64,000 bases of DNA, taken from Corallococcus exiguus (GTDB lineage: Bacteria > Myxococcota > Myxococcia > Myxococcales > Myxococcaceae). Position 1 is the first letter of the stretch. Every line of letters begins with the position of its first letter. The position numbers and the translations under genes are program-made. The notes below the pieces were generated by a model. It made no database searches. It worked only from the letters and a program-made list of their open reading frames with translations, and was not told the DNA's origin. Shown one piece after another: positions 5,776 to 49,917 of this stretch. The stretch spans positions 541,827-605,826 of the forward strand of contig NZ_JAAAPK010000002.1 in assembly GCF_009909105.1 (NCBI RefSeq), written 5' to 3'.

Positions 5776-8133
5776 CTACTCGACCGGGCGCACCTGGACC
5801 TGCATCACGGTCTGGGCCGGGTTCGTCGACAGCACCTCGATGATGGTGCCAGTCTTCGGAACCTTCACGCCGCCGTACGGCTGCGTGGCGTACCAGAACT
5901 CGTTCGTGTCGTTGAACACCGGCACCGCGGGCTGCGAGGCGTACTCGCTGCGCGGGAAGCCGTTGGGCTTGAGCGACAGCGGGAAGCTGGGCTCCAGGCC
6001 GAACGTCGCGTCGTGCGTCTGCACGCGGCCGGACCAGTAGCGGCCGTCGCTGCGCTGCAGGGGCTGCGGGCGCGAGTCGATGGGCAGGATGCGGCCCGAA
6101 CCCGGGTGCTGAGACACGTTGTTGTTCGACTGCGACGTGTCCCAGTAGGTGATCAGCAGGCCGGGGTTGTACGAGTAGCGCTCCGCCCAATCCACCAGGC
6201 CATCCGAGCTGAAGCCGAAGTTGTAGGGACCCGTGGCCAGACCCTCGTCGTAGCCGCGGAACTGGCGCCACTCGGCCAGGTAGTAGTTGTCGTAGAGGGT
6301 GTTGGTGCCGTCCGTCACGAAGAACGTCGACTTGTCCCACCACTTGTGGCCCCACTCACCGTCGTCACCAAAGAGGTAGGTGTTCTTCGCCCACAGCTGC
6401 ACGGCGTCCACCAGGAAGCCCTTGTTGAACTCAGCTCCGTCCGTCTTGTAGCGGAGCTTCAGGGTGACGGTCTTGCCCGCGTAGGCGGACAGGTCGAACT
6501 CCAGGGGAATCCAACCAGCGGACGTGCCGGTGATGCCGTTGCCCAGGTTGTTGCCCCACGGGTTCGTGGTGCGGCTCACGGGGCTGGCCAGGTTGGTGAA
6601 CGGGCCACCGTCCACGGAGAGGGCGACGTAGGCGTAGTCCCAGTCCTCCTCGATGTCGAACCAGGTCTGGAAGGAGAAGGTGATGGGCTTCTTGTTCGGC
6701 AGCTTCACCGTCTTCTCGAGCACGCGGTCCAGGTTGTTGCCCTGGCCGCCCTGCCACATGCCCTGGCCCTCGAACGGGGCGGTGGTGGGCTGCACCACGG
6801 GCTTGCCGGGCAGCTTCACCACGAGCGCCTGCTTCGCGTTCTGGGACGTGACCTCCGCGGGGCCCAGGTTGTGGTACGAGTACAGGCCCGCATCCGTGGT
6901 GGCGTAGTCCAGCCAGCCCAGCTGCAGCTTGTCCCAGGCGAAGAAGTCACCCGGACGGCTGCCAATGTCCTTGGTGCCGTCGTTCAGGTACGAGCCGGAC
7001 GACATGATGGTCCAGAAGCCCGTCCCGTTGTCCGCCGCGTTCGTCGTGTCGTAGTGGTCCGGCAGGCCCAGGTCGTGGCCGTACTCGTGCGCGAACACAC
7101 CCAGACCACCGTTCTCCGGCTGGATGGTGTAGTCGCCCACCCACTTGTCGATGCCCGTCCCGAAGCGCGTGCCGCCGTTCTGGTTGTACGCGGGGCCGAT
7201 GCCATCCGCGCTCGTGCCGTTGCTGTACGCGAACCAGCGGTGGCTCCACACGGCGTTGGGGCCCTGCGCGCCGCCGCCGACTTCCTCACCCATGCCGGCG
7301 TGGACGATCTGGAAGTGGTCGATGTAGCCGTCCGGCTCGTCGAAGTTGCCGTCGCCGTCGTAGTCGTACCGGTCCCACGTGTCGAACGTGTCCAGGTACG
7401 CCTTGATCTCCGCGGGCGTCTTGCCAGCGGCCAGCTGGGCGTTGGTCCACGCCTTGATGGCGTCGCTGACGAGCGGCCAGATGGAGTTGGAGCAGCTGGA
7501 GCTGCCGCAAAGGTTGTTGCCGTAGCGGGCGGCGTTGTACGGCACCTTCACCCACTCGGACACCGTGCCGGACACGGTGTAGCGGCCGGAGGACGCGGCC
7601 TTGTAGAAGTTCGCCACCGAGTCCGCGCCGGGCGTGGTGTCGAAGTAGAGCTTTTCGAAGTGCTCGCGGTTGTAGTCCGGCTGCCAGATGGTGGTGTTGT
7701 CCACCGTGCGGTCCGGGCCCGGAATCGCGTTGTGCAGCGGGCCGGGGATGTTGCCGCCCGGGTTGGTGGCGGGGTTGCCGAACACCGGGTGGATCTGCGT
7801 GCCGTACTCCACCAGGATGACGAAGATGCGGTCCGTGCGCTGCAGCTCCAGCTCCACGAACTTGCCGTTGGCCAGCTTCTGCACGCGGCCCGGCTGACCA
7901 CGACCCTCCAGACGCATCTGCAGCGCCTGCGCCTTCAGCTCCTTCTGCTGCTCACCCAGACGGTGGGGCAGGTCGTCCGTGATGTCCTGGACAACCGCCT
8001 GGCGCAGCTTGGTGGACGGCGCGGCGATGTCGGGTTGCGGCTTCTCGTACCACGCGCGCTCCGCGTACGCCGTCGGCGCCGCGAGCGTCAGCAGGCCCAG
8101 GGCCAGCCAAGATGGGTTTTTCCGCATTACCAC
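5776..8133 (-). CDS. Secreted M6-family metalloprotease (immune inhibitor A / InhA-like)
   Basis: Signal peptide (LALGLLTLAAPTAYA), zinc HEXXH motif in the context VFAHEYGHDLGLPDHYD, about 785 aa as is typical of M6 peptidases. Confidence 0.8.
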   Translation of the reverse strand: MVMRKNPSWLALGLLTLAAPTAYAERAWYEKPQPDIAAPSTKLRQAVVQDITDDLPHRLGEQQKELKAQALQMRLEGRGQPGRVQKLANGKFVELELQRTDRIFVILVEYGTQIHPVFGNPATNPGGNIPGPLHNAIPGPDRTVDNTTIWQPDYNREHFEKLYFDTTPGADSVANFYKAASSGRYTVSGTVSEWVKVPYNAARYGNNLCGSSSCSNSIWPLVSDAIKAWTNAQLAAGKTPAEIKAYLDTFDTWDRYDYDGDGNFDEPDGYIDHFQIVHAGMGEEVGGGAQGPNAVWSHRWFAYSNGTSADGIGPAYNQNGGTRFGTGIDKWVGDYTIQPENGGLGVFAHEYGHDLGLPDHYDTTNAADNGTGFWTIMSSGSYLNDGTKDIGSRPGDFFAWDKLQLGWLDYATTDAGLYSYHNLGPAEVTSQNAKQALVVKLPGKPVVQPTTAPFEGQGMWQGGQGNNLDRVLEKTVKLPNKKPITFSFQTWFDIEEDWDYAYVALSVDGGPFTNLASPVSRTTNPWGNNLGNGITGTSAGWIPLEFDLSAYAGKTVTLKLRYKTDGAEFNKGFLVDAVQLWAKNTYLFGDDGEWGHKWWDKSTFFVTDGTNTLYDNYYLAEWRQFRGYDEGLATGPYNFGFSSDGLVDWAERYSYNPGLLITYWDTSQSNNNVSQHPGSGRILPIDSRPQPLQRSDGRYWSGRVQTHDATFGLEPSFPLSLKPNGFPRSEYASQPAVPVFNDTNEFWYATQPYGGVKVPKTGTIIEVLSTNPAQTVMQVQVRPVE

Positions 8134-34999: not shown

Positions 35000-35017
35000 G
35001 CGGAAAGCCCCTTAAGG

Positions 35018-38000
35018 ATGCCCTCCACGCAGCCCATTGATCCCGCTGTCGCGATGCTGGCCCCGTACATGCCGGCGGCCATCCTCGCGCGGCTTGGGAG
35101 CCAGGATGCGGACGCGCTGCCCCGGGTGGAGGGCGTGCGGGGCGCCATCTTGCTGCTGGACATCGCGGGCTTCACGCCCATCGTGGTGGGGCTGAGCGGC
35201 GCGGGCCCTCGCGGCATCGACGCGCTCCAGCGCCTGCTGACGAACTACTACACGGAGATGATCGACGTCGTCCGCGACCACGGCGGGGACATCTACCAGT
35301 TCGCCGGCGACTCCATCCTCGCGTGCTTCGAGTCCGCGCCTGAGGAAGCGGACGCGGACGTCGTGCAGCGAGCGGCGGTGTGCGCGCTGGGCGTGCAGCG
35401 CAGGCTCGCGCGCTTCGCCCGGCTGGAGCTGTTGGGCCAGCGCTTCGGCGTGTCGTCGCGCATCGGCATCGGCTTTGGTGAGGCCACGCGCATCGTGATG
35501 GGCACCACCGGCCTGTGGATGCACCCGGCGCTCGTGGGAGAGCCGCTGGCGCAGGCGGTGGGCGCGGAGAAGCAGGCCACGGTGTCGGAGGTCGTCCTCA
35601 GCCCGCGCGCCTGGGCGGCGCTGCCGGAGTCCGCGCGCAGGGGCGACCCACGCGAGGGCGGCAACCACCGGCTGGCGCTCGACGCGCCGGTGGAGTCGGT
35701 GAAGCGCCCGCTGCCCGCGCCCACGGGTGGGGCGGAGCTGGTGGGCCGGTGCGCGCTGCTCCTGCACCCGGTGCTCTTCACGAAGATCACCACCGCGCAC
35801 CAGGAGTTCGCGGGCGACTTCCGCGACGTCACCTGCTTCTTCGTGCGCTTCACCCACGCGCGGGCGGACACGGATCCGGACGCGTTCACCCACGACCTCA
35901 ACGCCTACTACGAATACGTCCAGCGGGAGTCCGCCCACCACGGCGGCGTGCTGCTGATGACGGACTTCACGGACAAGGGCAACGTGCTCTACGTCCTGTT
36001 CGGCGCGCCCACCGCCCAGCAGAACAAGGAGGTGCTGGCGTGCCGGCTGGCCTGCAAGCTGCTCAAGGCCCGGGCGCAGTTCCCCTTCCTGGATGAGCTG
36101 CAGATCGGCATCGCCACCGGCCACGCCTACTGCGGGGACATGGGCTCGCCCACGCGCAAGGGCTACTCGGCGCTGGGCGAGGTCGTGAACATGGCCGCGC
36201 GCCTGATGACGCACGGCGGACACCAGGACGGCGTGCACCTGTGCGCCAACACCCAGGCGCGCTCGCAGCAGGGCGGCTTCGCCACGGAGTTCGTGGAGGA
36301 CGCGAAGCTCAAGGGCGTGTCGCGCTCGGTGCCGGTGTACCGGCTCTTGGGGGAGACGCGCCGCAGCCTCTTCATCAAGGGCCGGGGCGACATCATCGGC
36401 CGCAGCCGCGAGCTCAACGTGCTGCACGCGTCGCTCAACGCGGCCTTCGCCGGCCAGGGCCGCGTGAGCGTGGTGTCCGGCGAGGCGGGCATCGGCAAGT
36501 CGCGGCTGGGCGCGCGCGTGCTGGAGGACGCGGAGGAGGGCGGCGCCCGGGCGCTGTACGGCGTCTGCTACTCCTACGAGGCCTTCACCCCCTTCTTCCC
36601 CTGGAAGGAGGTGCTGCTCCAGGCCTTCGGTCTGCACGACTCGGACGACACCGAGGCGCAGCTCACGCGCCTGCGGCAGGGGCTGGACGGCCTGGAGGAC
36701 GTGGGGCCGGAGTGGATTCCCGTGGTCGCGGGCATCCTCGGCATGTCGCTGGAGGAGACGTCCGCCACGGCGGGGATGGACGCGCGGCGCAAGCAGCAGA
36801 AGGTGTTCCAGATCGTCTTCCAGCTCCTGGAGAAGCTCAGCCGCGCGCAGCCGCTGCTGCTCTTCTTCGAGGACCTGCACTGGGCGGACTACATCTCGTT
36901 GGATCTGCTCCAGTACCTGGCGGTGCGCGTGGGCTCGCACCGCATCATGGTGCTGGCGACGATGCGCCCGGGCGACCAGCTCCGCGGGCTGCGCGACCTG
37001 CCGGAGTTCGTCCCGGTGGACCTGACGAGCCTGGACGAAGAGGACACGCGGGCGCTCCTGCGCTTGCACCTGCGCCTGTCGCCGCCGGACGTCGCGCTGG
37101 AGGACCGGTTGCTCGCGAAGGTGCAGGGCAACCCGTTCTTCATCGAATCCATCGTGGAGGGCCTGGCGGAGCAGGGCTACCTGGGACCGGTGGAGCCCGG
37201 ATCGCAGCGGATGGAGCTGAAGCGCGGCCTCCAGGACCTGCTGCTGCCGGACTCCATCCAGGACGTGGTGCTGTCGCGCATCGACCTGCTCAGCGAGACG
37301 GAGAAGCTGGTGGTGAAGGTGGCGTCCGTCATCGGGCGCATCTTCACGCTGGACGCGGTGGCGGCGCTGGTGCCCACCCTGGGCCACGGCGTGCTGCGTG
37401 AGGCCATGGACACGCTCCAGCGCCTGGGCCTCATCCTGCTGGAGACGGAGGAGCCGTACACCTGCCTCTTCAAGCACATCGTCATCCGCGACGTGGCCTA
37501 CAACACGCTGCTGGTGTCGGCGCGTGAGGACCTGCACCGCCGGCTCGCGCGCTACCTGGAGGCCCGCGCCAACGACAACCTCGCGGCCTCCGCGGGTCTG
37601 CTCGCGTTCCACTTCCTCGCGGGGAACGTGGAGGACAAGGGCCTGGCGTACACGCTGATGGCGGCCCGCAGCGCGCGGGCGCAGTACGCGAACGACGACG
37701 CGCTCTACCACTACAACCGGGGACTGGAGCTGCTCGGCACCGTCGTTCCGGTGGACCCGGAGGTGACGCTGCTCCAGACGCGCCGGGTGATGCAGGAGCT
37801 GGCGGAGACGCTGCTCCAGGCGGGCCACTACGCCAACGCCATCCTGATGTTCGAGCAGTGCCTGGTGGACGAGGAGGAGCCCCCTCGCCAGGCGGAGCTG
37901 CACCTGGGCCTGGGCCGCGCGCACCAGGAGAAGGGCGAGTCCGCGCTCGCCACGCAGCACCTGGAGAAGTCGCTGGTGCTGAGGGGCCGCAGCCTCCCCG

Positions 38001-39304
38001 GGAGTCTGGCCGCGCTGGGCCTGCGCACGCTGGCGAACCTGGTGCTCCGGGGGCTCGCGACGCTGCTGCCCTTCATCTTGCGTCCGCTGCCGGCGGCGAG
38101 GCTGGGCAACTACCTGCAGCAGCTGTCCACGCTCAACTCGCTCATCCGCATCTACTACTTCGCGGACATCACCAAGCTCACCTGGGCGACGCTGGTGTCC
38201 ACCAACATGGCGGAGCGCTCGCGCAACGACTACGCCATGAGCATGGCGCGCGGTTACTACGGCACGCTCTTGTTCGGAGCGGGGCTGCTCAAGCGCTCGC
38301 GCTACCACTGTGAGAAGGCGCTGGAGTACGCGCGCCGCTCCAAGGACCCGGTGGCGGAGGGGCTCGCGCTCAGCCGCCTGGGCATCCAGGCCTTCTTCGC
38401 CAACGAGCTGGAGCGCGCGCGCGAATTCCAGGAGGAGGCCGTCTCCACGCTGCGCCAGGTGGGCGAGCGCTGGGAGCGCCAGACGTCGCTGATGATGCAG
38501 GCCACGGGCGAGTTCCTCCACTCGCGCTTCCGCACGGCGGTGGCGCTCTACGAGCAGATGGGGACCATTGGCGTGGAGCTCAACGCGCTGATGCACCAGG
38601 GCTGGGCGCACTCGTGGGCGCCCATGTGCCGCTACCTGTTGGGCGAAGGTGACGTGGGCGAATTGTGCGCGGAGCTGGAGCAGGGCCTGCGCATCAGCGA
38701 AGAGGTGGCGGACCTGGCCAACCAGTGCGCCAGCTTGAACCACCTGGCCAACGTCACGGTGCGCGAGCACCAGGTGGAGGAGGCGGCGCTCGTCGCGGTG
38801 CGCTGCTTCGAGAGCATCTGGAGCTATCAGGTGCTGGTGCCCTTCCTCCAGGTGGGGCTGGTGGACGCGGCGGAGGCGGCCCTCTTCGCGCTGGAGGAGG
38901 GCGCCACGGTGGTGCCGCGCAAGAAGCTGCTGAAGGTCGTGCGGCTGTCCTGCCTCAAGGCGCGCGTCATCGCGAGGCTCTATCCGTACCTGAAGGGTCC
39001 GGCGCTGCGCGTGACAGCGCGCTCGCTGGCCCTGCGCAAGGGACCCAAGGCCGCGGAGCCCGTGTTCCTGGAGGCCATCGCCGTCCTGGAGAAGAGCCCC
39101 AACCGCTGGGAGACGGGCGTGGCCTACTTCGACGCGGCGGTGGCGCTGCCGAACCGGCGCGAGGAGTTCCTCGCCCGAGCGCGCGCCATCTTCACGGAGG
39201 TGGAGGCCCGCGCGGAGCTGCGCCGCATGGACCGCTTCCAGGGCCACCCTCCAGGCCCCGCCGGTGGAGGCGCTTGTTGCTCCCCAGGCCTCAAGGTCCC
39301 GTGA
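35018..39304 (+). CDS. Giant signalling protein: tandem class III nucleotidyl cyclase domains, STAND/AAA ATPase and TPR repeats
   Basis: Two cyclase homology domains (ILLLDIAGFT...FAGDSILACF; FFVRFTH...LFGAP), a P-loop (VVSGEAGIGKSRL) and C-terminal TPR-like repeats. Confidence 0.85.
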   Translation: MPSTQPIDPAVAMLAPYMPAAILARLGSQDADALPRVEGVRGAILLLDIAGFTPIVVGLSGAGPRGIDALQRLLTNYYTEMIDVVRDHGGDIYQFAGDSILACFESAPEEADADVVQRAAVCALGVQRRLARFARLELLGQRFGVSSRIGIGFGEATRIVMGTTGLWMHPALVGEPLAQAVGAEKQATVSEVVLSPRAWAALPESARRGDPREGGNHRLALDAPVESVKRPLPAPTGGAELVGRCALLLHPVLFTKITTAHQEFAGDFRDVTCFFVRFTHARADTDPDAFTHDLNAYYEYVQRESAHHGGVLLMTDFTDKGNVLYVLFGAPTAQQNKEVLACRLACKLLKARAQFPFLDELQIGIATGHAYCGDMGSPTRKGYSALGEVVNMAARLMTHGGHQDGVHLCANTQARSQQGGFATEFVEDAKLKGVSRSVPVYRLLGETRRSLFIKGRGDIIGRSRELNVLHASLNAAFAGQGRVSVVSGEAGIGKSRLGARVLEDAEEGGARALYGVCYSYEAFTPFFPWKEVLLQAFGLHDSDDTEAQLTRLRQGLDGLEDVGPEWIPVVAGILGMSLEETSATAGMDARRKQQKVFQIVFQLLEKLSRAQPLLLFFEDLHWADYISLDLLQYLAVRVGSHRIMVLATMRPGDQLRGLRDLPEFVPVDLTSLDEEDTRALLRLHLRLSPPDVALEDRLLAKVQGNPFFIESIVEGLAEQGYLGPVEPGSQRMELKRGLQDLLLPDSIQDVVLSRIDLLSETEKLVVKVASVIGRIFTLDAVAALVPTLGHGVLREAMDTLQRLGLILLETEEPYTCLFKHIVIRDVAYNTLLVSAREDLHRRLARYLEARANDNLAASAGLLAFHFLAGNVEDKGLAYTLMAARSARAQYANDDALYHYNRGLELLGTVVPVDPEVTLLQTRRVMQELAETLLQAGHYANAILMFEQCLVDEEEPPRQAELHLGLGRAHQEKGESALATQHLEKSLVLRGRSLPGSLAALGLRTLANLVLRGLATLLPFILRPLPAARLGNYLQQLSTLNSLIRIYYFADITKLTWATLVSTNMAERSRNDYAMSMARGYYGTLLFGAGLLKRSRYHCEKALEYARRSKDPVAEGLALSRLGIQAFFANELERAREFQEEAVSTLRQVGERWERQTSLMMQATGEFLHSRFRTAVALYEQMGTIGVELNALMHQGWAHSWAPMCRYLLGEGDVGELCAELEQGLRISEEVADLANQCASLNHLANVTVREHQVEEAALVAVRCFESIWSYQVLVPFLQVGLVDAAEAALFALEEGATVVPRKKLLKVVRLSCLKARVIARLYPYLKGPALRVTARSLALRKGPKAAEPVFLEAIAVLEKSPNRWETGVAYFDAAVALPNRREEFLARARAIFTEVEARAELRRMDRFQGHPPGPAGGGACCSPGLKVP

Positions 39305-39398
39305 CGCTCGCGTGATGTGACGCGCCTGACGCATTCCTTGTCCCGTCAGGCGGGGCCCCTAGACTGCGTGCTTCTCCTTCGACCTCACGCACCGGGCC

Positions 39399-41843: not shown

Positions 41844-43631
41844 ATGGATACTTCTCCTTCGCCAGCCGCCCCGGGTTGGCCGTTTAAGCGCTACTTCTGG
41901 ATTTCCATCGTGTTCGCGGTGGCGCTGGGCTCGCTCGCGTTGCGCTCGGGATTCATGCCGGATGACTTCATCTGGCTGGGCGTCTGGGACAACATTCCGC
42001 CGCCCGCGCCGCTGGGGAACACGCCCCTGGACGTGTACCGCACGGCCACGGGCATCCCGGAGCACACGCTGCACCTGGCGCAGGTGGGCGTCTTCCCGTG
42101 GTGGGTGGAGCCCACCGTGCGCGTCGCGTTCTTCCGGCCCCTGGGCAGCCTGCTCTACGGACTGGACCACGTGCTCTACAACCGCGTGGCGGTGGCCTAC
42201 CAGTTCCACTCGTTGCTCTGGTACGTGGGCCTGGTGGTGCTGGCGGGCGTGCTGCTCAAGCGCGTGCTGCCCACGGCGGTGGCGGGCGTGGCGATGTTCC
42301 TCTTCGCCATCTGGGGCTCGCACGCGGCGGTGCTGGGCTGGCTGTCCTACCGCAGCGTGGTGATGTCGCTGCTCTTCGGCGTCCTCGGCATCTTCCTCCA
42401 CGTGAAGTGGCGGGAGGAGAAGCGCACGAGCACCCTGGTGGGCGCGCTGGTGTCCTTCGCGCTGGCGCTCCTGTGCGGCGAGACGATGGTCATCCTCAGC
42501 CCGTACGTGCTGGCCTACGAGGCCTTCTCCGGCCCGGGGCAGGCGAAGGACAAGCTCAAGGGGCTCATCCCCTTCGGCGTGCTGATGGCCATCTACTTCG
42601 CGGCGTACCGGGCCATGGGCTACGGCGCGGGCGGCTCGGACATGTACCTGGACGCCCTGGGCACGCCCGTGGCGTGGTTCCAGGCGATGCTCGGGCGCGT
42701 CCCGGCCGCCATCGCGGGCCTGACGCTGAACGCGCCTCCGGACTTCATCTTCGACCAGTCCCTGGTGCCCCTCTTCACCCTCCTGGGCGCGGTGGGTTTC
42801 ACGCTGTTCGCGCTGCTGGTGTGGGGCGTGTGGCCCCGGCTGGAGTCCGCGGAGCGCCGCACGGTGGGCTGGATGCTGACGGGCGCGTTCGTGGCCACGT
42901 GGATGTCCAACTCCGCCTTCGCCGGCTCGCGCACGCTCATCGTGCCCAGCCTGGGCATGGCGGTGGGCCTGGCCGTGGTGCTGCGCCACGCGTGGAAGGG
43001 GCGGGCGAAGACGTTCCGCGCGGGCGCGGTGCTGGCCGGCGCGGCGCTGATGGCGCTCATCCACGTCGTGGGCTCGCCGTACCTCTGGTGGCAGACCATG
43101 GAGCAGTACTCCCAGGCGGACGCGCTCATGGGCCGCGTGCAGGCGCGCTACGAGGAGGCGTTTGACCAGACGAAGCTCTCCAATCAGCGCGTGGTGGTGC
43201 TCAACGCCCCCAACGGCATCATCGGCATCTACGGCTCCGTGCGCTGGTGGTCCTCGGGCAATCCGCTGCCGAAGGCCTGGTGGGTGCTGTCCTATTCGCT
43301 CTATGAGCAGAAGGTGACGCGCACCGGCCCCAACTCGGTGGAGCTGGAGCTCACCAAGGGCGGCCACTTCCTGGACTCCGTGGAGGAGCGCATCCACCGC
43401 GCCGCGCGCCACCCGGTGCACAAGGGCGACGAGTTCGACATGAAGGGCATGATGGTGCGCATCGAGGAGGCGGACGCGGAGGGACCCACGCGCATCTCCT
43501 ACACCTTCGATGTGCCGCTCGAGGACCCGTCGCTGAAGCTGGTCCAGTGGCAGAACAAGAAGGTGGTGCCCTGGGTGCCGCCGGCCGTGGGTGGACCGTC
43601 GTCGTCCCTCAACGTCCGGGTCGTGCAGTAG
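41844..43631 (+). CDS. Polytopic membrane protein with a C-terminal soluble domain (function unknown)
   Basis: About 10 predicted TM helices followed by a roughly 180-aa hydrophilic C-terminus. Confidence 0.6.
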   Translation: MDTSPSPAAPGWPFKRYFWISIVFAVALGSLALRSGFMPDDFIWLGVWDNIPPPAPLGNTPLDVYRTATGIPEHTLHLAQVGVFPWWVEPTVRVAFFRPLGSLLYGLDHVLYNRVAVAYQFHSLLWYVGLVVLAGVLLKRVLPTAVAGVAMFLFAIWGSHAAVLGWLSYRSVVMSLLFGVLGIFLHVKWREEKRTSTLVGALVSFALALLCGETMVILSPYVLAYEAFSGPGQAKDKLKGLIPFGVLMAIYFAAYRAMGYGAGGSDMYLDALGTPVAWFQAMLGRVPAAIAGLTLNAPPDFIFDQSLVPLFTLLGAVGFTLFALLVWGVWPRLESAERRTVGWMLTGAFVATWMSNSAFAGSRTLIVPSLGMAVGLAVVLRHAWKGRAKTFRAGAVLAGAALMALIHVVGSPYLWWQTMEQYSQADALMGRVQARYEEAFDQTKLSNQRVVVLNAPNGIIGIYGSVRWWSSGNPLPKAWWVLSYSLYEQKVTRTGPNSVELELTKGGHFLDSVEERIHRAARHPVHKGDEFDMKGMMVRIEEADAEGPTRISYTFDVPLEDPSLKLVQWQNKKVVPWVPPAVGGPSSSLNVRVVQ

Positions 43632-44712: not shown

Positions 44713-45339
44713 TCAGCTGTGCTCCAGCACGACGCCCTCGATGACGTTGGCCACGCCCTGGCACTTGTCCGTGGCCGTCTCGATGAGGTCGTAGATCTCC
44801 TTCCACTTGATGATGGTCAGGGTATCCACGCCGCTCTTGAACAGCCGGCCCATGCCCGCGCGCAGCGCCTCGTCCGCCTGGGACTCCAGGTGCTTGATCT
44901 CCTTGCAGCCCGCGAGGATCTGCTCCGGCTTCTTGATGAGCCGCAGCGCCGCGACGACCTCCTGCACCTTCAGCGTGGAGAGCACCAGCAGCCGCGCCAG
45001 CTCCGTGGCGTCCGCCCGGGTGGATTCGATCTCGTAGTACAGCAGGCGCGCCGCCGCCGCGTTGGTCAGGTCCAGCACGTCGTCGATGCGCGACAGCAGC
45101 GTGTGGATCTGCCCCCGGTCGAACGGGGTGATGAACTGCTGGTGGAGGCGGTTGAAGGCCGTGTGGGTGACCTCGTCGCCCTTGTGCTCCACGTCCTTGA
45201 GGGCCTGGACGCGCGTGGGCACGTCCCGGAAGTCGCTCAGGAGCTCGTGTAGGAGCTTTGCTCCCTCGACAGTTCTGGCGCATTGCGCGTCGAAGTCGTC
45301 GAAGAACTCGTCCGACTTCGGCATCAGCTTTTCGAGCAT
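44713..45339 (-). CDS. DUF47-family (PhoU-like) Pit accessory protein
   Basis: About 208 aa, helical, immediately upstream of PiT. This is the classic pairing. Confidence 0.85.
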   Translation of the reverse strand: MLEKLMPKSDEFFDDFDAQCARTVEGAKLLHELLSDFRDVPTRVQALKDVEHKGDEVTHTAFNRLHQQFITPFDRGQIHTLLSRIDDVLDLTNAAAARLLYYEIESTRADATELARLLVLSTLKVQEVVAALRLIKKPEQILAGCKEIKHLESQADEALRAGMGRLFKSGVDTLTIIKWKEIYDLIETATDKCQGVANVIEGVVLEHS

Positions 45340-45516
45340 GGGGATCTCCCTCGGCGCCTGGAGGGACAGGAGCTGTCAGCCGCGGGAGGGTGGTGGCGCC
45401 TCTAGGGGGTGACACTCCCGTGACGCGGGAGTGACTACCCTACCTGGAGAGATTCGCCAGTGTTCCGTGCGAAAACGCACGGATTCCAAGGGGTTGCGCT
45501 TGACGCAGGCCGCCGC

Positions 45517-46179
45517 TCAGACGACGCGGTTGCGCAGCTCCTCGAAGAATCCCACCCACAGTTGCCACATCTCCTCGGCACCGCGGGTGATGGTGGCCAG
45601 CTCCTCGTCCGTGTACGCGAGCCCCATCGTGTGGCCGGCCGTCTCCACGTGGTCCGGCTCCTGCTTCACGTGGATGTCCACCCAGGGCAGGGACTTGAGG
45701 CCCGTGGTGCGGCGCACCAGCTTGCCCAGCTTGGCCACCATGGTGAGGTCCGCCACCTCCGTGCCGTAGAGGAAGCCCAGGCCGGTGAGGTGGCTGTCCG
45801 TGGAGCGCTGGTAACCGTCGATGAGCCGGCGCGTCGCGGGCGTCATGTCCGCCTCGGACACGCCCGCCTGGGTGAAGCCCGCGTCCGTCATCGTCTGGAT
45901 GAAGAAGCGCTCGTGGGCGCGCGCCGGGTCTCCCTCGCCCACCTCCTGGTTGAGGATGTGCGTCACTGCCGTCTTCATCTCCATCTGCGGGCAGACGGCG
46001 ATCAGCTTGCCCAGGAAGGTGGGGAAATAGTGCAGGGGGTGCCACCACTGACCCAGCACCAGCTCCGCCTGATCGCGGCTGAAGGCCTTCTCATCCACCA
46101 CTTCGAAGAACCGGTGCTTGATCAGCTGCTCACGGTGGGGATTCTTCGCCAGTGCCGCCTCGATGGTCTGGTTCCGCAT
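45517..46179 (-). CDS. Haem-oxygenase-like fold, iron-containing redox enzyme family protein (putative diiron oxidase/oxygenase)
   Basis: Helical fold with E/H ligand-like motifs (NQEVGEG...ARAHERF...YGTEVAD...DIHVKQEPDHVE). Confidence 0.6.
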   Translation of the reverse strand: MRNQTIEAALAKNPHREQLIKHRFFEVVDEKAFSRDQAELVLGQWWHPLHYFPTFLGKLIAVCPQMEMKTAVTHILNQEVGEGDPARAHERFFIQTMTDAGFTQAGVSEADMTPATRRLIDGYQRSTDSHLTGLGFLYGTEVADLTMVAKLGKLVRRTTGLKSLPWVDIHVKQEPDHVETAGHTMGLAYTDEELATITRGAEEMWQLWVGFFEELRNRVV

Positions 46180-46397
46180 TGCCGCCTCCAGGGTGGTCCA
46201 AAAGGGCTGGGTCGGCGTTTATCACAAAGCAGGACTGTGATTCTTGGAAATGTGGAAATACAAGTACAACGTGACTACGTGGTTTACCGCCAGTGTGGAA
46301 CGTACAGGCGGACAAGGGCGGGCTGTTCGGGGTGGGGAATGCAGCCTACAGTTGGAAAAGCGGCATTTTTTCCCCGGCCCACTTGTCTCGGAAGCCC
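46180..46397. promoter_or_regulatory. AT-rich divergent intergenic region with an inverted repeat (TCACA-N9-TGTGA) and a direct TGGAAAT repeat
   Basis: Local GC is far below the genome average. Palindromic and direct repeats lie between the divergently transcribed oxidase-like and desaturase-like genes. Confidence 0.5.
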
Positions 46398-47282
46398 ATG
46401 ACCCTGTTCCGGCACCCTGAAGATCGCATCCCGGTCCTGATGTTCCTTGGCGTGTTCGCGCTCGACGTGACGGTGTTCCTCACGGCTCAGAGTTGGTGGA
46501 TCCCGGTGCTGTGGTTCGGGCTGGGCATCATCCCCAAGGGATGGATCTGCTCGTGGAACCACCACCACCAGCACCTGTCCTTCTTCAAGCACGCGCTGCC
46601 CAACCGCCTGTTGGAGATCGTCTTCGGCTTCCAGACGGGCGTGACGTCGCAGGCGTGGTTCCTCCACCACGTGCTGGGCCACCACAAGAACTACCTGGAC
46701 CAGACGCAGGACGAGTCGCGCTGGAAGCGGGATGACGGCTCGACGATGGGGGAGGTGGAGTACTCGCTGAGCACGGCGCTGACCGCGTACTCGCGCGCGT
46801 TCCACGTGGGGAAGAAGCATCACCCCAAGGCGCTGCGCGTGTTCGTGTGGATGGCCGCGCTCCAGGTGGTGCTGCTGGCGGGCCTGTTCTGGGTGAACCC
46901 CTACAACGCGCTCTTCGTGTTCCTCTTGCCCATGATGGCGTCGCTCTACGTGACGACCTGGGCCACGTACTTCCACCACGTGGGCCTGGAGACGGCCAAC
47001 CACTCGGAGGCCTCGTACAACATCCTCCACAAGGGCTACAACCTGATGACGGGCAACCTGGGCTACCACACCGCGCATCACACGCGGCACGGTCTGCACT
47101 GGTCCAAGCTGCCGGAGCTGCACGCGCAGCTGGCGCAGGAGATCCCCGCGAACCTGTACCGCCAGCCGGGCATCCCGTTCGTCTGGAGCGGCTCTGAAGA
47201 GAAGCTCGTGCTGAGCGAGCACGAGGTCGCCGCGCTCTCCGGCAGGCCCGTGGAAGGCAGCGGGGAGAAGCTGGCCGCCTAG
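46398..47282 (+). CDS. Membrane fatty-acid desaturase/hydroxylase-family diiron enzyme
   Basis: His boxes WNHHHQH, HHVLGHH and HTAHHTRH, plus TM helices. The start is chosen at MTLFRHPED. Confidence 0.75.
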   Translation: MTLFRHPEDRIPVLMFLGVFALDVTVFLTAQSWWIPVLWFGLGIIPKGWICSWNHHHQHLSFFKHALPNRLLEIVFGFQTGVTSQAWFLHHVLGHHKNYLDQTQDESRWKRDDGSTMGEVEYSLSTALTAYSRAFHVGKKHHPKALRVFVWMAALQVVLLAGLFWVNPYNALFVFLLPMMASLYVTTWATYFHHVGLETANHSEASYNILHKGYNLMTGNLGYHTAHHTRHGLHWSKLPELHAQLAQEIPANLYRQPGIPFVWSGSEEKLVLSEHEVAALSGRPVEGSGEKLAA

Positions 47283-47350
47283 CGGTCCCGCTGTCCCCGC
47301 TGGATGCTCCCGCCGGAAGTGCTCCTTCCGGCGGAGGGTGCCGCGGTCAG

Positions 47351-48784
47351 CTACTTCGGCTGCTGCTGCGGCTCCGTCGTGCGGTTCGCCGCGATGTTGA
47401 TGACGTTGAGGAGCAGGTCCTTCACGCGGCGGGGCTTGTTGCCGCCGTTGTCCTCGATGATCTTGTCGATGTCGTCATCCTGCCGGTGGTACTCCGGGAT
47501 GAGGTCGCCGCCGCCCTCGGGGTTGGACAGGCCCTCGAAGAGGAAGAGCACGTCCTCGCCCTTGCGCCCGAAGGACGCGCCGTCCTGCCGGTCGCGGTAG
47601 ACGTTGATGTCGCGGTTGATGCGGTCGAACGGATCCGCCAGCTGCTGGTTCGCCTGGTCCACCACGTCACGGAAGTAGTTGGGCTGGCCCTTGGTGTTGG
47701 TGTCCACCACGGACAGGCGCTGATCATCCCAACGGCCCACCATGTCCGTGTTGATGACGCCGGCGATGTTCTTCAGCTCCAGGCCGGGGATGGGGTGGTC
47801 CACGAAGTACTGCGAGCCCACCAGGCCCTTCTCCTCCGCGCCCGTCCAGATGAAGAGCACGGAGCGGTCCAGCTTGCCGTTCTTCGCGGCCTCCGCCAGC
47901 TCCGGCACCGCCGCCATCAGCACCGCGCTGCCGGACGCGTTGTCGTCCGCGCCGTTGTACGGGTTGCCCTTGCGGTCCACGCCCACGTGGTCCAGGTGGG
48001 CCATCACCACGATGACCTCGTCCTTGTGGGGGCCGGTGCCGGGCAGCATGGCCATGGTGTTCACCGCCTGGCCCGTGGCGGCGGCCACCTGCTTGAGCTC
48101 CTCCACGCTGCGCTGCTTGCCCGCGCGCGCCGGCACCACCGACTGGCCCGCCGCCTTCATCGTCTGCTCGTACTGCTGGTTGAGCTTCTTCAGCGTGTCC
48201 TTGGGCATCTTCTCGTCCAGGTAGAAGCCCTCCTGGAACATCGTGTGGCCGAACTGCTTGTGCTCGGCATGCCCTGCGTGCGCCGCGCCCGCCGCCTCGC
48301 CCGCCTTGTCCGCGCCCAGCCACGAGTAGACGTTGAACTTCTGCTGGAAGGGGTTCTCCGGGTTGTTGATGTTGGGCCCCACGAGCCCGTACTTCTCCGC
48401 GTGGGCCTGCACGTAGACGGAAGCGGCATCCAGGCCCGCGGAGGGGCTGTCACGTCCCTGCAGCGCGTCCGAGGCCAGGTACTCGATGTGCGTCATCGGA
48501 TCCGAGTCGACCGAAACGGGCGGCTCGGTGGGCGCCTCCGGAGGCACCGGCGTCGTCGGAGCGGGCGTCGGGGTGGTGGGCGCGGGCAGCCCCAGGATCG
48601 GAGGCGGCGCGGGCAGCCGCGGCAGCTGGCCGGGCGCGGGGCGCGTGCTGCCGGAGGACTCGAAGCCGTCCTTGAACGCGAGAGGGCGGTTCCGGGACTT
48701 CGCATCCGTCGTCCGGGCGTCCTGCGAGGACAGCCGCGAGACGGAGGTGAGGGGACGCGAGCTGTCGTTGATCTTCGAGGCCAT
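47351..48784 (-). CDS. M28-family zinc aminopeptidase with a Pro-rich N-terminal region
   Basis: M28 motifs (MAHLDHVG, DDNASGSAVLM, TGAEEKGLVGS). No classical signal peptide. Confidence 0.8.
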   Translation of the reverse strand: MASKINDSSRPLTSVSRLSSQDARTTDAKSRNRPLAFKDGFESSGSTRPAPGQLPRLPAPPPILGLPAPTTPTPAPTTPVPPEAPTEPPVSVDSDPMTHIEYLASDALQGRDSPSAGLDAASVYVQAHAEKYGLVGPNINNPENPFQQKFNVYSWLGADKAGEAAGAAHAGHAEHKQFGHTMFQEGFYLDEKMPKDTLKKLNQQYEQTMKAAGQSVVPARAGKQRSVEELKQVAAATGQAVNTMAMLPGTGPHKDEVIVVMAHLDHVGVDRKGNPYNGADDNASGSAVLMAAVPELAEAAKNGKLDRSVLFIWTGAEEKGLVGSQYFVDHPIPGLELKNIAGVINTDMVGRWDDQRLSVVDTNTKGQPNYFRDVVDQANQQLADPFDRINRDINVYRDRQDGASFGRKGEDVLFLFEGLSNPEGGGDLIPEYHRQDDDIDKIIEDNGGNKPRRVKDLLLNVINIAANRTTEPQQQPK

Positions 48785-49101: not shown

Positions 49102-49917
49102 ATGCATCTGAAGATCACGGGTTCCCTGCTGGCTTCCATGCTGCTGAGCATCACGGGTTGCGCGGGCGGTGCCGATGACGGCCAGGCCTCCGGTTCCCTG
49201 AACGCGCAGGAAGCCGCGGCGTCCCAGTGCGTGAAGAAGTTCGAAGGCATCACCAGCTGCGCGCTGGGCCGCGCGAAGGTGGATGCCGTCGCTGACGGGC
49301 TGGCGGTGTCCAACCTCACGACCCAGAAGGACGGCGTCTCCAGCAGCTTCACGCAGGCCGTGAAGTGGGAGCAGCGCGTGGCGACGCGTCTGGGGGCGCA
49401 GGGTGGCTACCAGCTGTCCGCGCGCGATGGCGATCAGGTCGTCAGCACGCTGAAGGTGACGCCGGGCCGCGAGGCGAACACGGTCAACATCCTGCCCACG
49501 TTCACGGGCTCGCCGGGCGGCTCCGCGTACCGGATGAACATCTACCGGGGCGGCGTGCTCCAGGGCTCCAGCCCCCAGCCGGCCGGGCTGATGATCACCT
49601 TCACCAACTGGCGGGACTTCCTCCGCTGGGCGGAGATGAACCACCACTTCCTGAACGACTTCGACATCGACGGGCTGTCCACCGGCTCCGCGGAGACGAA
49701 CGTGGGCGCGTGCGTGTGGCGCCTGGACTCGGAGAAGAACACCTTCACCGTGGACATCAACGGCAAGTCCGTCACCGGTGACTCGGTGGAGTTCATCGAG
49801 ACCGTCGCGGATGGCGCGTACCCGTACCGTCACTTCACGGGCATCGACACGAACGCCATCGCTGGCGAGTACACCATCCGCTCCGAGTCCATCACCCAGC
49901 CCACGGGCCTGAAGTAG
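49102..49917 (+). CDS. Lipoprotein, function unknown
   Basis: Lipobox (LLSITGC). Confidence 0.55.
   Translation: MHLKITGSLLASMLLSITGCAGGADDGQASGSLNAQEAAASQCVKKFEGITSCALGRAKVDAVADGLAVSNLTTQKDGVSSSFTQAVKWEQRVATRLGAQGGYQLSARDGDQVVSTLKVTPGREANTVNILPTFTGSPGGSAYRMNIYRGGVLQGSSPQPAGLMITFTNWRDFLRWAEMNHHFLNDFDIDGLSTGSAETNVGACVWRLDSEKNTFTVDINGKSVTGDSVEFIETVADGAYPYRHFTGIDTNAIAGEYTIRSESITQPTGLK

Follow-up and report, generated by a model that had tools for sequence, protein, structure and literature searches.

A haem-oxygenase-like diiron oxidase gene and a membrane desaturase gene stand back to back in Corallococcus, probably as independent neighbours

In a 64,000-nucleotide stretch of Corallococcus exiguus DNA (the window; 70% GC), two divergent genes were located on either side of an AT-rich spacer. 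Based on the open reading frame (ORF) listing and Pfam scans, the minus-strand gene (45517–46179) encoded a 220-aa protein of the haem-oxygenase-like diiron oxidase (HDO) superfamily (PF14518), and the plus-strand gene (46398–47282) encoded a 294-aa integral-membrane protein of the fatty-acid-desaturase family (PF00487). The spacer between them (46180–46397) was 218 bp long and consisted of two parts of differing evolutionary history. The desaturase ORF could open upstream, at GTG 46293; since homologues begin at ATG 46398 and the arrangement GGAAG-N5-ATG was conserved in all Corallococcus loci, the latter is supported as the predicted start. Counterparts of both proteins in named Corallococcus genomes were 91–97% identical. 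A sequence-only reading of the window had proposed that the two enzymes form a module with a dedicated operator. Comparison with related genomes indicates instead that this putative module is a chance neighbourhood, and we consider it probable that two independent O2-activating diiron enzymes came to stand back to back only through a gene order specific to Corallococcus.

The minus-strand protein matched PF14518 (Haem_oxygenas_2) with an E value of 1.6e-27 and 96.9 bits, against a gathering cut-off of 28.9. Alignment with 26 relatives revealed six invariant metal ligands, E82, H89, E141, H170, E174 and H177, spaced as E-x6-H ... E ... H-x3-E-x2-H; a set of three histidines and three carboxylates (3-His/3-carboxylate) on the core helices alpha1–alpha3 defines the HDOs (PMC13108848). 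The AlphaFold2 model was an all-helical bundle (predicted local distance difference test, pLDDT, 89.2; predicted template modelling score, pTM, 0.88) with the HDO fold, and a Foldseek search gave template modelling (TM) scores of 0.75–0.80 to PolF, CADD, BesC and UndA. These results bore out the sequence-only reading of a minus-strand HDO with alternating Glu/His ligands, and together the alignment and the model indicate a soluble seven-helix HDO with a complete 3-His/3-carboxylate site. The motif GQWWHPLHYFP was invariant and marks the clade to which the window protein belongs.

Database entries name the protein 'iron-containing redox enzyme family protein', 'TenA family transcriptional regulator' or 'PQQ biosynthesis protein C'. 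The latter two names, weak PF03070 matches in some relatives and the presence of TenA structures lower in the Foldseek list would agree with a metal-free TenA thiaminase II, a PqqC-type enzyme or a TenA family transcriptional regulator. Such an identity is hardly credible, since 1) PF03070 (TENA_THI-4) gave no match to the window protein at E ≤ 1, whereas PF14518 scored far above threshold, 2) all six metal ligands, i.e. the full 3-His/3-carboxylate set, were invariant, 3) the TenA structures reached TM scores of 0.54–0.71 at 10–16% identity, and 4) no thiamine or PQQ genes were found among the scanned neighbours. Together, these results argue that the HDO is neither a TenA nor a PqqC protein, whatever the database names say, and the thiaminase-type scoring that would have spoken against the sequence-only reading did not appear.

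A family profile was required for comparison with solved structures, a single-sequence search of PDB sequences being insufficient; the lone match of the latter, an aspartokinase (E = 0.55), was rejected as spurious. With the profile, the best match among solved structures was BesC (4-chloro-allylglycine synthase, an amino-acid-cleaving HDO; PDB 7TWA) at E = 1.9e-8, followed by p-aminobenzoate (pABA) synthases at 3e-7 and weaker, and the ligands of the window HDO aligned with the corresponding motifs of BesC and of the 9pj4 pABA synthase. BesC (TM 0.80) shares the E...H / E / H-x3-E-x2-H ligands and serves natural-product biosynthesis, as do the relatives of the window HDO; it differs in that identity was just 17–19%, in that its pathway makes a free amino acid and in that it is without the GQWWHPLHYFP motif, and no halogenase or Bes-type genes were present at the window locus. 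The top Foldseek E values came from PolF (PDB 9PJ2/9J3V), an azetidine synthase of the HDO superfamily whose substrate is L-isoleucine and whose product is a non-proteinogenic amino acid destined for a peptide-type natural product, but PolF was ~40 residues longer and 16–19% identical, with a weak, C-terminal profile match (E = 0.14). UndA (1-undecene synthase; PDB 4WWJ/6P5Q) shares the HDO fold (TM 0.70–0.76), but its identity was 12–13% and it was absent from the family-profile PDB search at E ≤ 1.

CADD and NePabS (PDB 1RCW, 8VA9, 9PJ4) resembled the window HDO in length (~220–230 aa) and in ligand spacing (E-x6-H; H-x3-D/E-x2-H), and they gave the closest backbone superposition (rmsd 2.8 Å), CADD being among the best structural matches (TM 0.78). 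In addition to the family-profile matches to 9pj4 (3e-7), 8va9 and CT610, a weak match to NCBIfam TIGR04305 ('CADD family putative folate metabolism protein', E = 3.6e-11) would suit a self-sacrificing pABA synthase feeding folate synthesis or supplying pABA units. The TIGR04305 score was, however, 43 bits against a cut-off of 200. These synthases sacrifice a tyrosine (CADD Tyr27, NePabS Tyr25), which is the Y of HPFY within the peptide YIAWTEGK (PMC11965152), whereas the position of this tyrosine was occupied by an invariant phenylalanine (F25) in all 26 family members. The amine-donor lysine is Lys152 in CADD and Lys159 in NePabS; the window HDO has K150 and K153, positional equivalence being approximate, and K150, the nearest candidate only, was glycine in most relatives. 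As BesC also outscored the pABA synthases in the profile search, and the genomic association of the clade was with non-ribosomal peptide synthetase (NRPS) genes and not with folate genes, pABA synthesis is very improbable. By analogy, oxidation of an acyl precursor or an amino acid is the most likely reaction of the HDO, the nearest precedent being amino-acid chemistry of the BesC, PolF and HrmI type.

The plus-strand protein matched PF00487 (FA_desaturase) with an E value of 2e-28 and 100.3 bits against a cut-off of 29.7, and both Pfam families expected from the sequence alone, Haem_oxygenas_2 and FA_desaturase, were thus recovered above their cut-offs. The three His boxes read in it, H55-x3-H59, H91-x3-H95-H96 and H224-x2-H227-H228, agreed with the superfamily consensus (HX3-4H, HX2-3HH and HX2-3HH) and were indeed invariant in 21 relatives, and hydrophobic helix pairs were located by Kyte-Doolittle analysis in the stretches ~9–33 and ~143–190. 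In its eight-His three-box motif, two hydrophobic helix pairs and Pfam score, the protein is like the PF00487 superfamily (acyl-lipid desaturases, AlkB and UndB-like enzymes); no curated NCBIfam subfamily matched, the best being DesA with 11 bits against a cut-off of 500. Orthologues 50–97% identical were found across Myxococcaceae, Archangiaceae, uncultured Myxococcota, Bdellovibrionota and Planctomycetota, that of M. xanthus being ABF90268.1. These features point to a four-helix, three-His-box enzyme of the membrane desaturase/hydroxylase family, a stand-alone core gene across Myxococcota, which most likely modifies membrane acyl lipids. It was also noticed that Archangium had two desaturase paralogues 9–11 kb apart on the same contig, in a metagenome-assembled genome (MAG; L020/L022) and in Archangium violaceum Cb vi76 (L024/L027).

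To examine synteny, 79 relative loci of the desaturase from one-genome-per-species collections were searched for the HDO and other neighbours. The HDO adjoined the desaturase in the window and in 8 of the 79 loci, all of them Corallococcus (L001–L005, L007, L010 and L058). It was absent between the same flanking genes in four Corallococcus loci, those of C. sicarius (L008), C. praedator (L009), C. terminator (L011) and a MAG (L012), where the DUF47–Pit operon that lies beyond the HDO in the window directly abutted the desaturase. No HDO was found near the desaturase in 66 non-Corallococcus loci, nor in L029, a second Corallococcus terminator contig with a Myxococcus-type desaturase copy; L006 had too little upstream DNA for an HDO call. 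The conserved-neighbour search, in which overlapping spurious high-GC ORFs were discounted, found no cross-genus conserved neighbour of the desaturase. The two genes were therefore not syntenic in related genomes outside Corallococcus, an outcome that the sequence-only reading had itself named as refuting, and adjacency confined to one genus, with the HDO absent from four loci that keep the desaturase, speaks against the functional pairing that had been proposed.

Alignment of HDO-bearing with HDO-less Corallococcus loci revealed that homology ended after GGGGTTG (45490–45496) and resumed at GGGCTGTTC (46320), both boundaries being sharp. The segment so delimited (45497–46319, ~823 bp) comprised 20 bp of 3′ flank, the HDO coding sequence and 140 bp of upstream DNA, and was missing in L008, L009, L011 and L012; the DNA missing from the HDO-less loci amounted to ~0.8–1.0 kb, while the desaturase and ~78 bp proximal to it were kept. 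This desaturase-proximal region (46320–46397, plus strand, 78 bp) was conserved in all 13 Corallococcus loci with or without the HDO, and it held an invariant TACAGT (46347–46352), a putative −10-like element, and a GGAAG Shine-Dalgarno sequence 5 nt before the ATG. The whole spacer had 56% GC and its core (46215–46290) 43%, and 46191–46320 was the sole place in the 64 kb where 100 bp with a GC content of ≤50% occurred. This AT-rich core and the two motifs within it were present only in HDO-bearing loci. Because the core occurs only with the HDO, whereas the 78 bp stay with the desaturase, the core would be the HDO's own upstream region, with its putative promoter and regulatory sites, and not a shared operator; the length and AT-richness noted in the sequence-only reading were confirmed, but its status as a shared region found no support. 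A stretch of the core (~46217–46290, 74 nt) was 81–93% identical among 9 Corallococcus loci, whereas the leader adjoining it had 53% identity in the two most distant loci, which indicates that the core may be under modest constraint.

The two motifs that had been taken for an operator, a TCACA-N9-TGTGA palindrome (46222–46240) and tandem TGGAAAT repeats (at 46245 and 46253), were present in the window. The right arm of the palindrome, TGTGA on the plus strand, was kept in 3 of the 9 Corallococcus loci (window, L001 and L010) and was TGCGA, TGAGA, TGCTA or AGCGA elsewhere, and the palindrome was absent from Pyxidicoccus in the alignment. In first-order Markov simulations of the spacer, 3.9 inverted repeats of 5 bp with loops of ≤15 bp were expected against 5 observed (fraction at or above the observed number, 0.35), and the simulated fraction for a 7-bp tandem repeat was 0.10. 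Both motifs were accordingly within chance expectation and the palindrome was unconserved, which argues against a dedicated shared operator. An RNA hairpin at the palindrome was also considered and rejected, as the stem was 5 bp and the substitutions in other species were sometimes compatible (G-U) and otherwise disruptive.

Careful examination of the reverse complement of the tandem repeats, TTTCCACATTTCCAAGAA (46241–46258, minus strand), revealed that, of all elements in the spacer, it alone was retained in front of the Pyxidicoccus HDO as well. Read in the direction of the HDO, it was TTTCC-N3-TTTCCAAGAA in Corallococcus and TTTTCTCCATTTTCAAGGA in Pyxidicoccus, and the upstream neighbours differed between the two genera. 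A degenerate TTTCC pattern, derived from those very sequences, had one match in the window (0 expected) and otherwise occurred only upstream of HDO genes (L002, L003, L005, L058 and L080–L082). The best candidate for a regulatory site in the spacer, should there be one, would be this TTTCC element, which belongs to the HDO.

No sigma-70-like promoter was found at the scan threshold in 45300–47400. Candidate −35/−10 pairs read by hand in the AT-rich core (e.g. TTGAAC-18-AAGAAT or an extended −10, TGTGATAAA) were rejected with ≤8 of 12 matches. Upstream of the desaturase, TTGGAAAAGCGGCA was considered as a sigma-54 promoter and was rejected by inspection on account of its spacing. An Rfam scan of 45200–46500 gave a lone miRNA match (E = 0.67), attributable to chance.

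The spacer varied in length, being 341 bp in C. llansteffanensis and CA053C (L007:5651–6003 and L010:5651–6003) as compared with 46180–46397 in the window. About 80 bp of this longer spacer were common to the HDO-less C. sicarius and were lost in the coralloides-group genomes, including the window; therefore, more than one round of remodelling has taken place in the spacer. Two further elements were noticed in front of the desaturase in other lineages: 1) a direct repeat, TTCAC-N6-GTCAC (e.g. TTCACGGTTCAGTCAC), ~60–110 bp upstream of the gene in uncultured Myxococcales MAGs (L042, L044–L046, L049–L051 and L053) and absent in Corallococcus, which is possibly a desaturase operator in those lineages, and 2) CTGTATGCT or CTGTATACTGG, an extended −10-like TGnTATACT kept in Archangium (L014, L016, L018, L020 and L027) and Cystobacter (L013 and L038), where Corallococcus has CTACAGT.

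When the window was compared with L007 and L010, the HDO-bearing loci most distant from it, the synonymous divergence (dS) of the HDO was 0.28–0.30, as compared with 0.20–0.36 for the flanking genes, and the ratio of nonsynonymous to synonymous divergence (dN/dS) of the HDO was 0.07–0.16. As the HDO and the flanking genes thus had equal dS, a recent horizontal transfer of the former among Corallococcus lineages was rejected, and the substitution pattern indicates a functional, vertically inherited gene under purifying selection. In a neighbour-joining tree of four flanking genes, the HDO-less taxa fell in two places, L008 being sister to the HDO-bearing pair L007/L010, and L009, L011 and L012 forming a clade of their own; the junction sequences also differed between L008 and the other three. 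These results suggest that the HDO was probably deleted twice independently, with the desaturase retained each time. The divergence of the desaturase followed the tree and not the presence of the HDO.

Identity among HDO homologues dropped from ~80% (Corallococcus and Pyxidicoccus) straight to ≤59% (soil metagenomes and Acidobacteriota of the Thermoanaerobaculia and Polarisedimenticolia). In Pyxidicoccus caerfyrddinensis, an MFS_3 transporter and then an NRPS came downstream of an 81%-identical HDO, all on one strand, and the desaturase orthologue was located on another contig. In five acidobacterial contigs, the HDO abutted NRPS genes of 2,133–6,342 aa, mostly starting with an AMP-binding/DIP2-like loading region. 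A sample of 89 HDO-relative loci was then compiled from 9 exact look-ups and 80 loci of a metagenome scan. An NRPS was present in the available DNA of 67 of them, within 1.5 kb in 63, and was placed divergently upstream of the HDO in 34 and co-directionally downstream in 32; only 3 loci with ≥1.5 kb on both sides were without one. The desaturase occurred in none of the 89. Since NRPS genes adjoin most of these relatives and the desaturase none, the clade would be one of NRPS accessory enzymes, of which the Corallococcus copy is the detached exception; the lipid or alkene role suggested for the HDO from sequence alone found no support in this context. The literature searched yielded no description of the NRPS-adjacent acidobacterial clade.

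Two side observations were made on these relatives. In loci L083–L168, from soil Acidobacteriota and metagenomes, HDO genes (49–59% identical; at ~6001–6700 or elsewhere) nearly always adjoined giant NRPS genes, and an Abhydrolase_2/DLH-type esterase often lay on the other side of the HDO. In the Pyxidicoccus caerfyrddinensis locus (L080, 1–5842 and 6771–12663), genes for a DUF5916 protein, an acyl-CoA dehydrogenase, an unannotated product and a distant FA_desaturase paralogue were found ~5 kb upstream of the HDO on the other strand; this paralogue was no orthologue of the window desaturase (no tblastn match at 1e-6).

A dedicated two-enzyme pathway, in which the HDO and the membrane desaturase carry out UndA/UndB-like fatty-acid chemistry and are co-regulated by a transcription factor at the palindrome or the repeats, can now be weighed. 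The genes are divergent across 218 bp with an unusually AT-rich core, both products belong to O2-dependent diiron families, the arrangement was stable in 9 Corallococcus loci, and UndA was a structural neighbour of the HDO model (TM 0.76). On the other hand, the pairing is limited to a single genus, within which it was probably lost twice while the desaturase remained; none of the 89 HDO-relative loci contained the desaturase; the AT-rich core belongs to the HDO-only segment, the desaturase keeping its own proximal region; the palindrome was neither conserved nor above chance; desaturase divergence tracked phylogeny rather than the HDO; and UndA had no sequence-level match. Such a pathway, already largely refuted by synteny, is thus very improbable, and, the pair being by all indications a chance neighbourhood, effort spent on co-expressing the two genes in search of alkenes or modified fatty acids would probably be lost.

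We therefore favour two enzymes acting independently, the HDO belonging to an uncharacterised clade whose members in soil Acidobacteriota and Pyxidicoccus stand nearly always right beside, and often co-directionally with, large NRPS genes. The annotated NRPS examples begin with a fatty-acyl-AMP-ligase-type module, and the ancestral role of the HDO may have been oxidative tailoring of a lipopeptide, or the provision of one of its building blocks in the form of an acyl precursor or an amino acid. In Corallococcus, the HDO would have become detached from the NRPS, with its own AT-rich upstream region carrying the TTTCC element, vertical inheritance and purifying selection, and it would be dispensable, having probably been lost twice. 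The promoter of the desaturase would probably lie in the ~78-bp proximal region, which is kept regardless of the HDO.

Several points weigh against this interpretation. In species with both genes, the AT-rich core may still co-regulate them bidirectionally, and the power of footprinting in Corallococcus was low, neutral identity being ~75–90%. The HDO has no NRPS next to it and yet is strongly constrained by purifying selection, so some role is implied; this role may have arisen within Corallococcus and may concern lipid metabolism. Adjacency to an NRPS was called from tblastn matches to two NRPS queries and not from domain models. Finally, a search for a cognate NRPS with the N-terminus of the Pyxidicoccus NRPS, in which 8,000 candidates were scored and paralogues swamped the list, gave a best Corallococcus match of 63% identity over 71% of the query.

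The same search bears on the possibility that the Corallococcus HDO acts in trans with an NRPS cluster elsewhere in the genome, and is a displaced biosynthetic gene and not a true orphan. The strong NRPS association of the clade, the strong purifying selection in an isolated position and the HDO–MFS–NRPS cluster of the 81%-identical Pyxidicoccus homologue would fit this, whereas among the 8,000 candidates no clear Corallococcus orthologue of the Pyxidicoccus NRPS emerged, and the HDO was lost in several species; action in trans is therefore conceivable but somewhat doubtful. It may also be speculated, again tentatively, that this uncharacterised and widespread clade (mainly soil Acidobacteriota, with patchy occurrence in Myxococcaceae), linked to lipopeptide NRPS genes and marked by GQWWHPLHYFP, performs a transformation undescribed for HDOs on a fatty-acyl or amino-acid precursor, and that the NRPS-uncoupled yet selected Corallococcus enzyme makes a small molecule in free form, which conceivably acts on membrane lipids or together with them.

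Taken as independent neighbours, the two genes make an ordinary locus, an orphaned accessory HDO beside a core membrane desaturase, and a side lead for natural-product enzymology. The NRPS-adjacent clade of soil Acidobacteriota, which are poorly explored producers, is a genome-mining lead for new HDO chemistry. In addition, Corallococcus offers a natural presence/absence series of the HDO among close species, in which comparative metabolomics could reveal its product without genetics.

The window neighbours of the pair were housekeeping genes (PhoU_div, PHO4, M28 peptidase and SLT). On the 3′ side of the HDO and on the same strand, Pfam identified a PhoU_div/DUF47 gene (PF01865) and then a PHO4-type phosphate transporter (PF01384), and past the desaturase an M28 peptidase gene lay on the opposite strand. 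Neither the ORF listing nor Pfam scans of the products of eight neighbours revealed an NRPS or other biosynthetic gene near the pair. By alignment, the upstream region of the DUF47(PhoU_div)–Pit operon (45340–45496, minus strand) was common to HDO-less species and lay outside the HDO unit. It contained a perfect palindrome, TCCGTGCG-AAAA-CGCACGGA, at 45464–45483 (context 45460–45489), upstream of the DUF47(PhoU_div)–Pit(PHO4) operon; its outer half-sites, GTGTTCCGTG and CACGGATTCC, were invariant in five aligned Corallococcus sequences while the centre varied, and the half-sites recurred upstream in the HDO-less loci. The alternative candidate roles for this palindrome are that of an operator controlling the phosphate-transporter operon and that of a 3′-terminal hairpin in the HDO transcript.

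Elsewhere in the window, a 1,440-aa ORF (35012–39334, minus strand) overlapped an antisense ORF of 1,428 aa (35018–39304, plus strand), and the 1,440-aa product had zero Pfam matches at E ≤ 0.001. Two proteins without a Pfam match, a 595-aa hydrophobic protein (41844–43631, plus strand) and a 271-aa protein with a lipoprotein-like N-terminus (49102–49917, plus strand), were diverging fast among Corallococcus, with identities of 63–94% and 70–90%, respectively, and dN/dS of 0.3–0.75.

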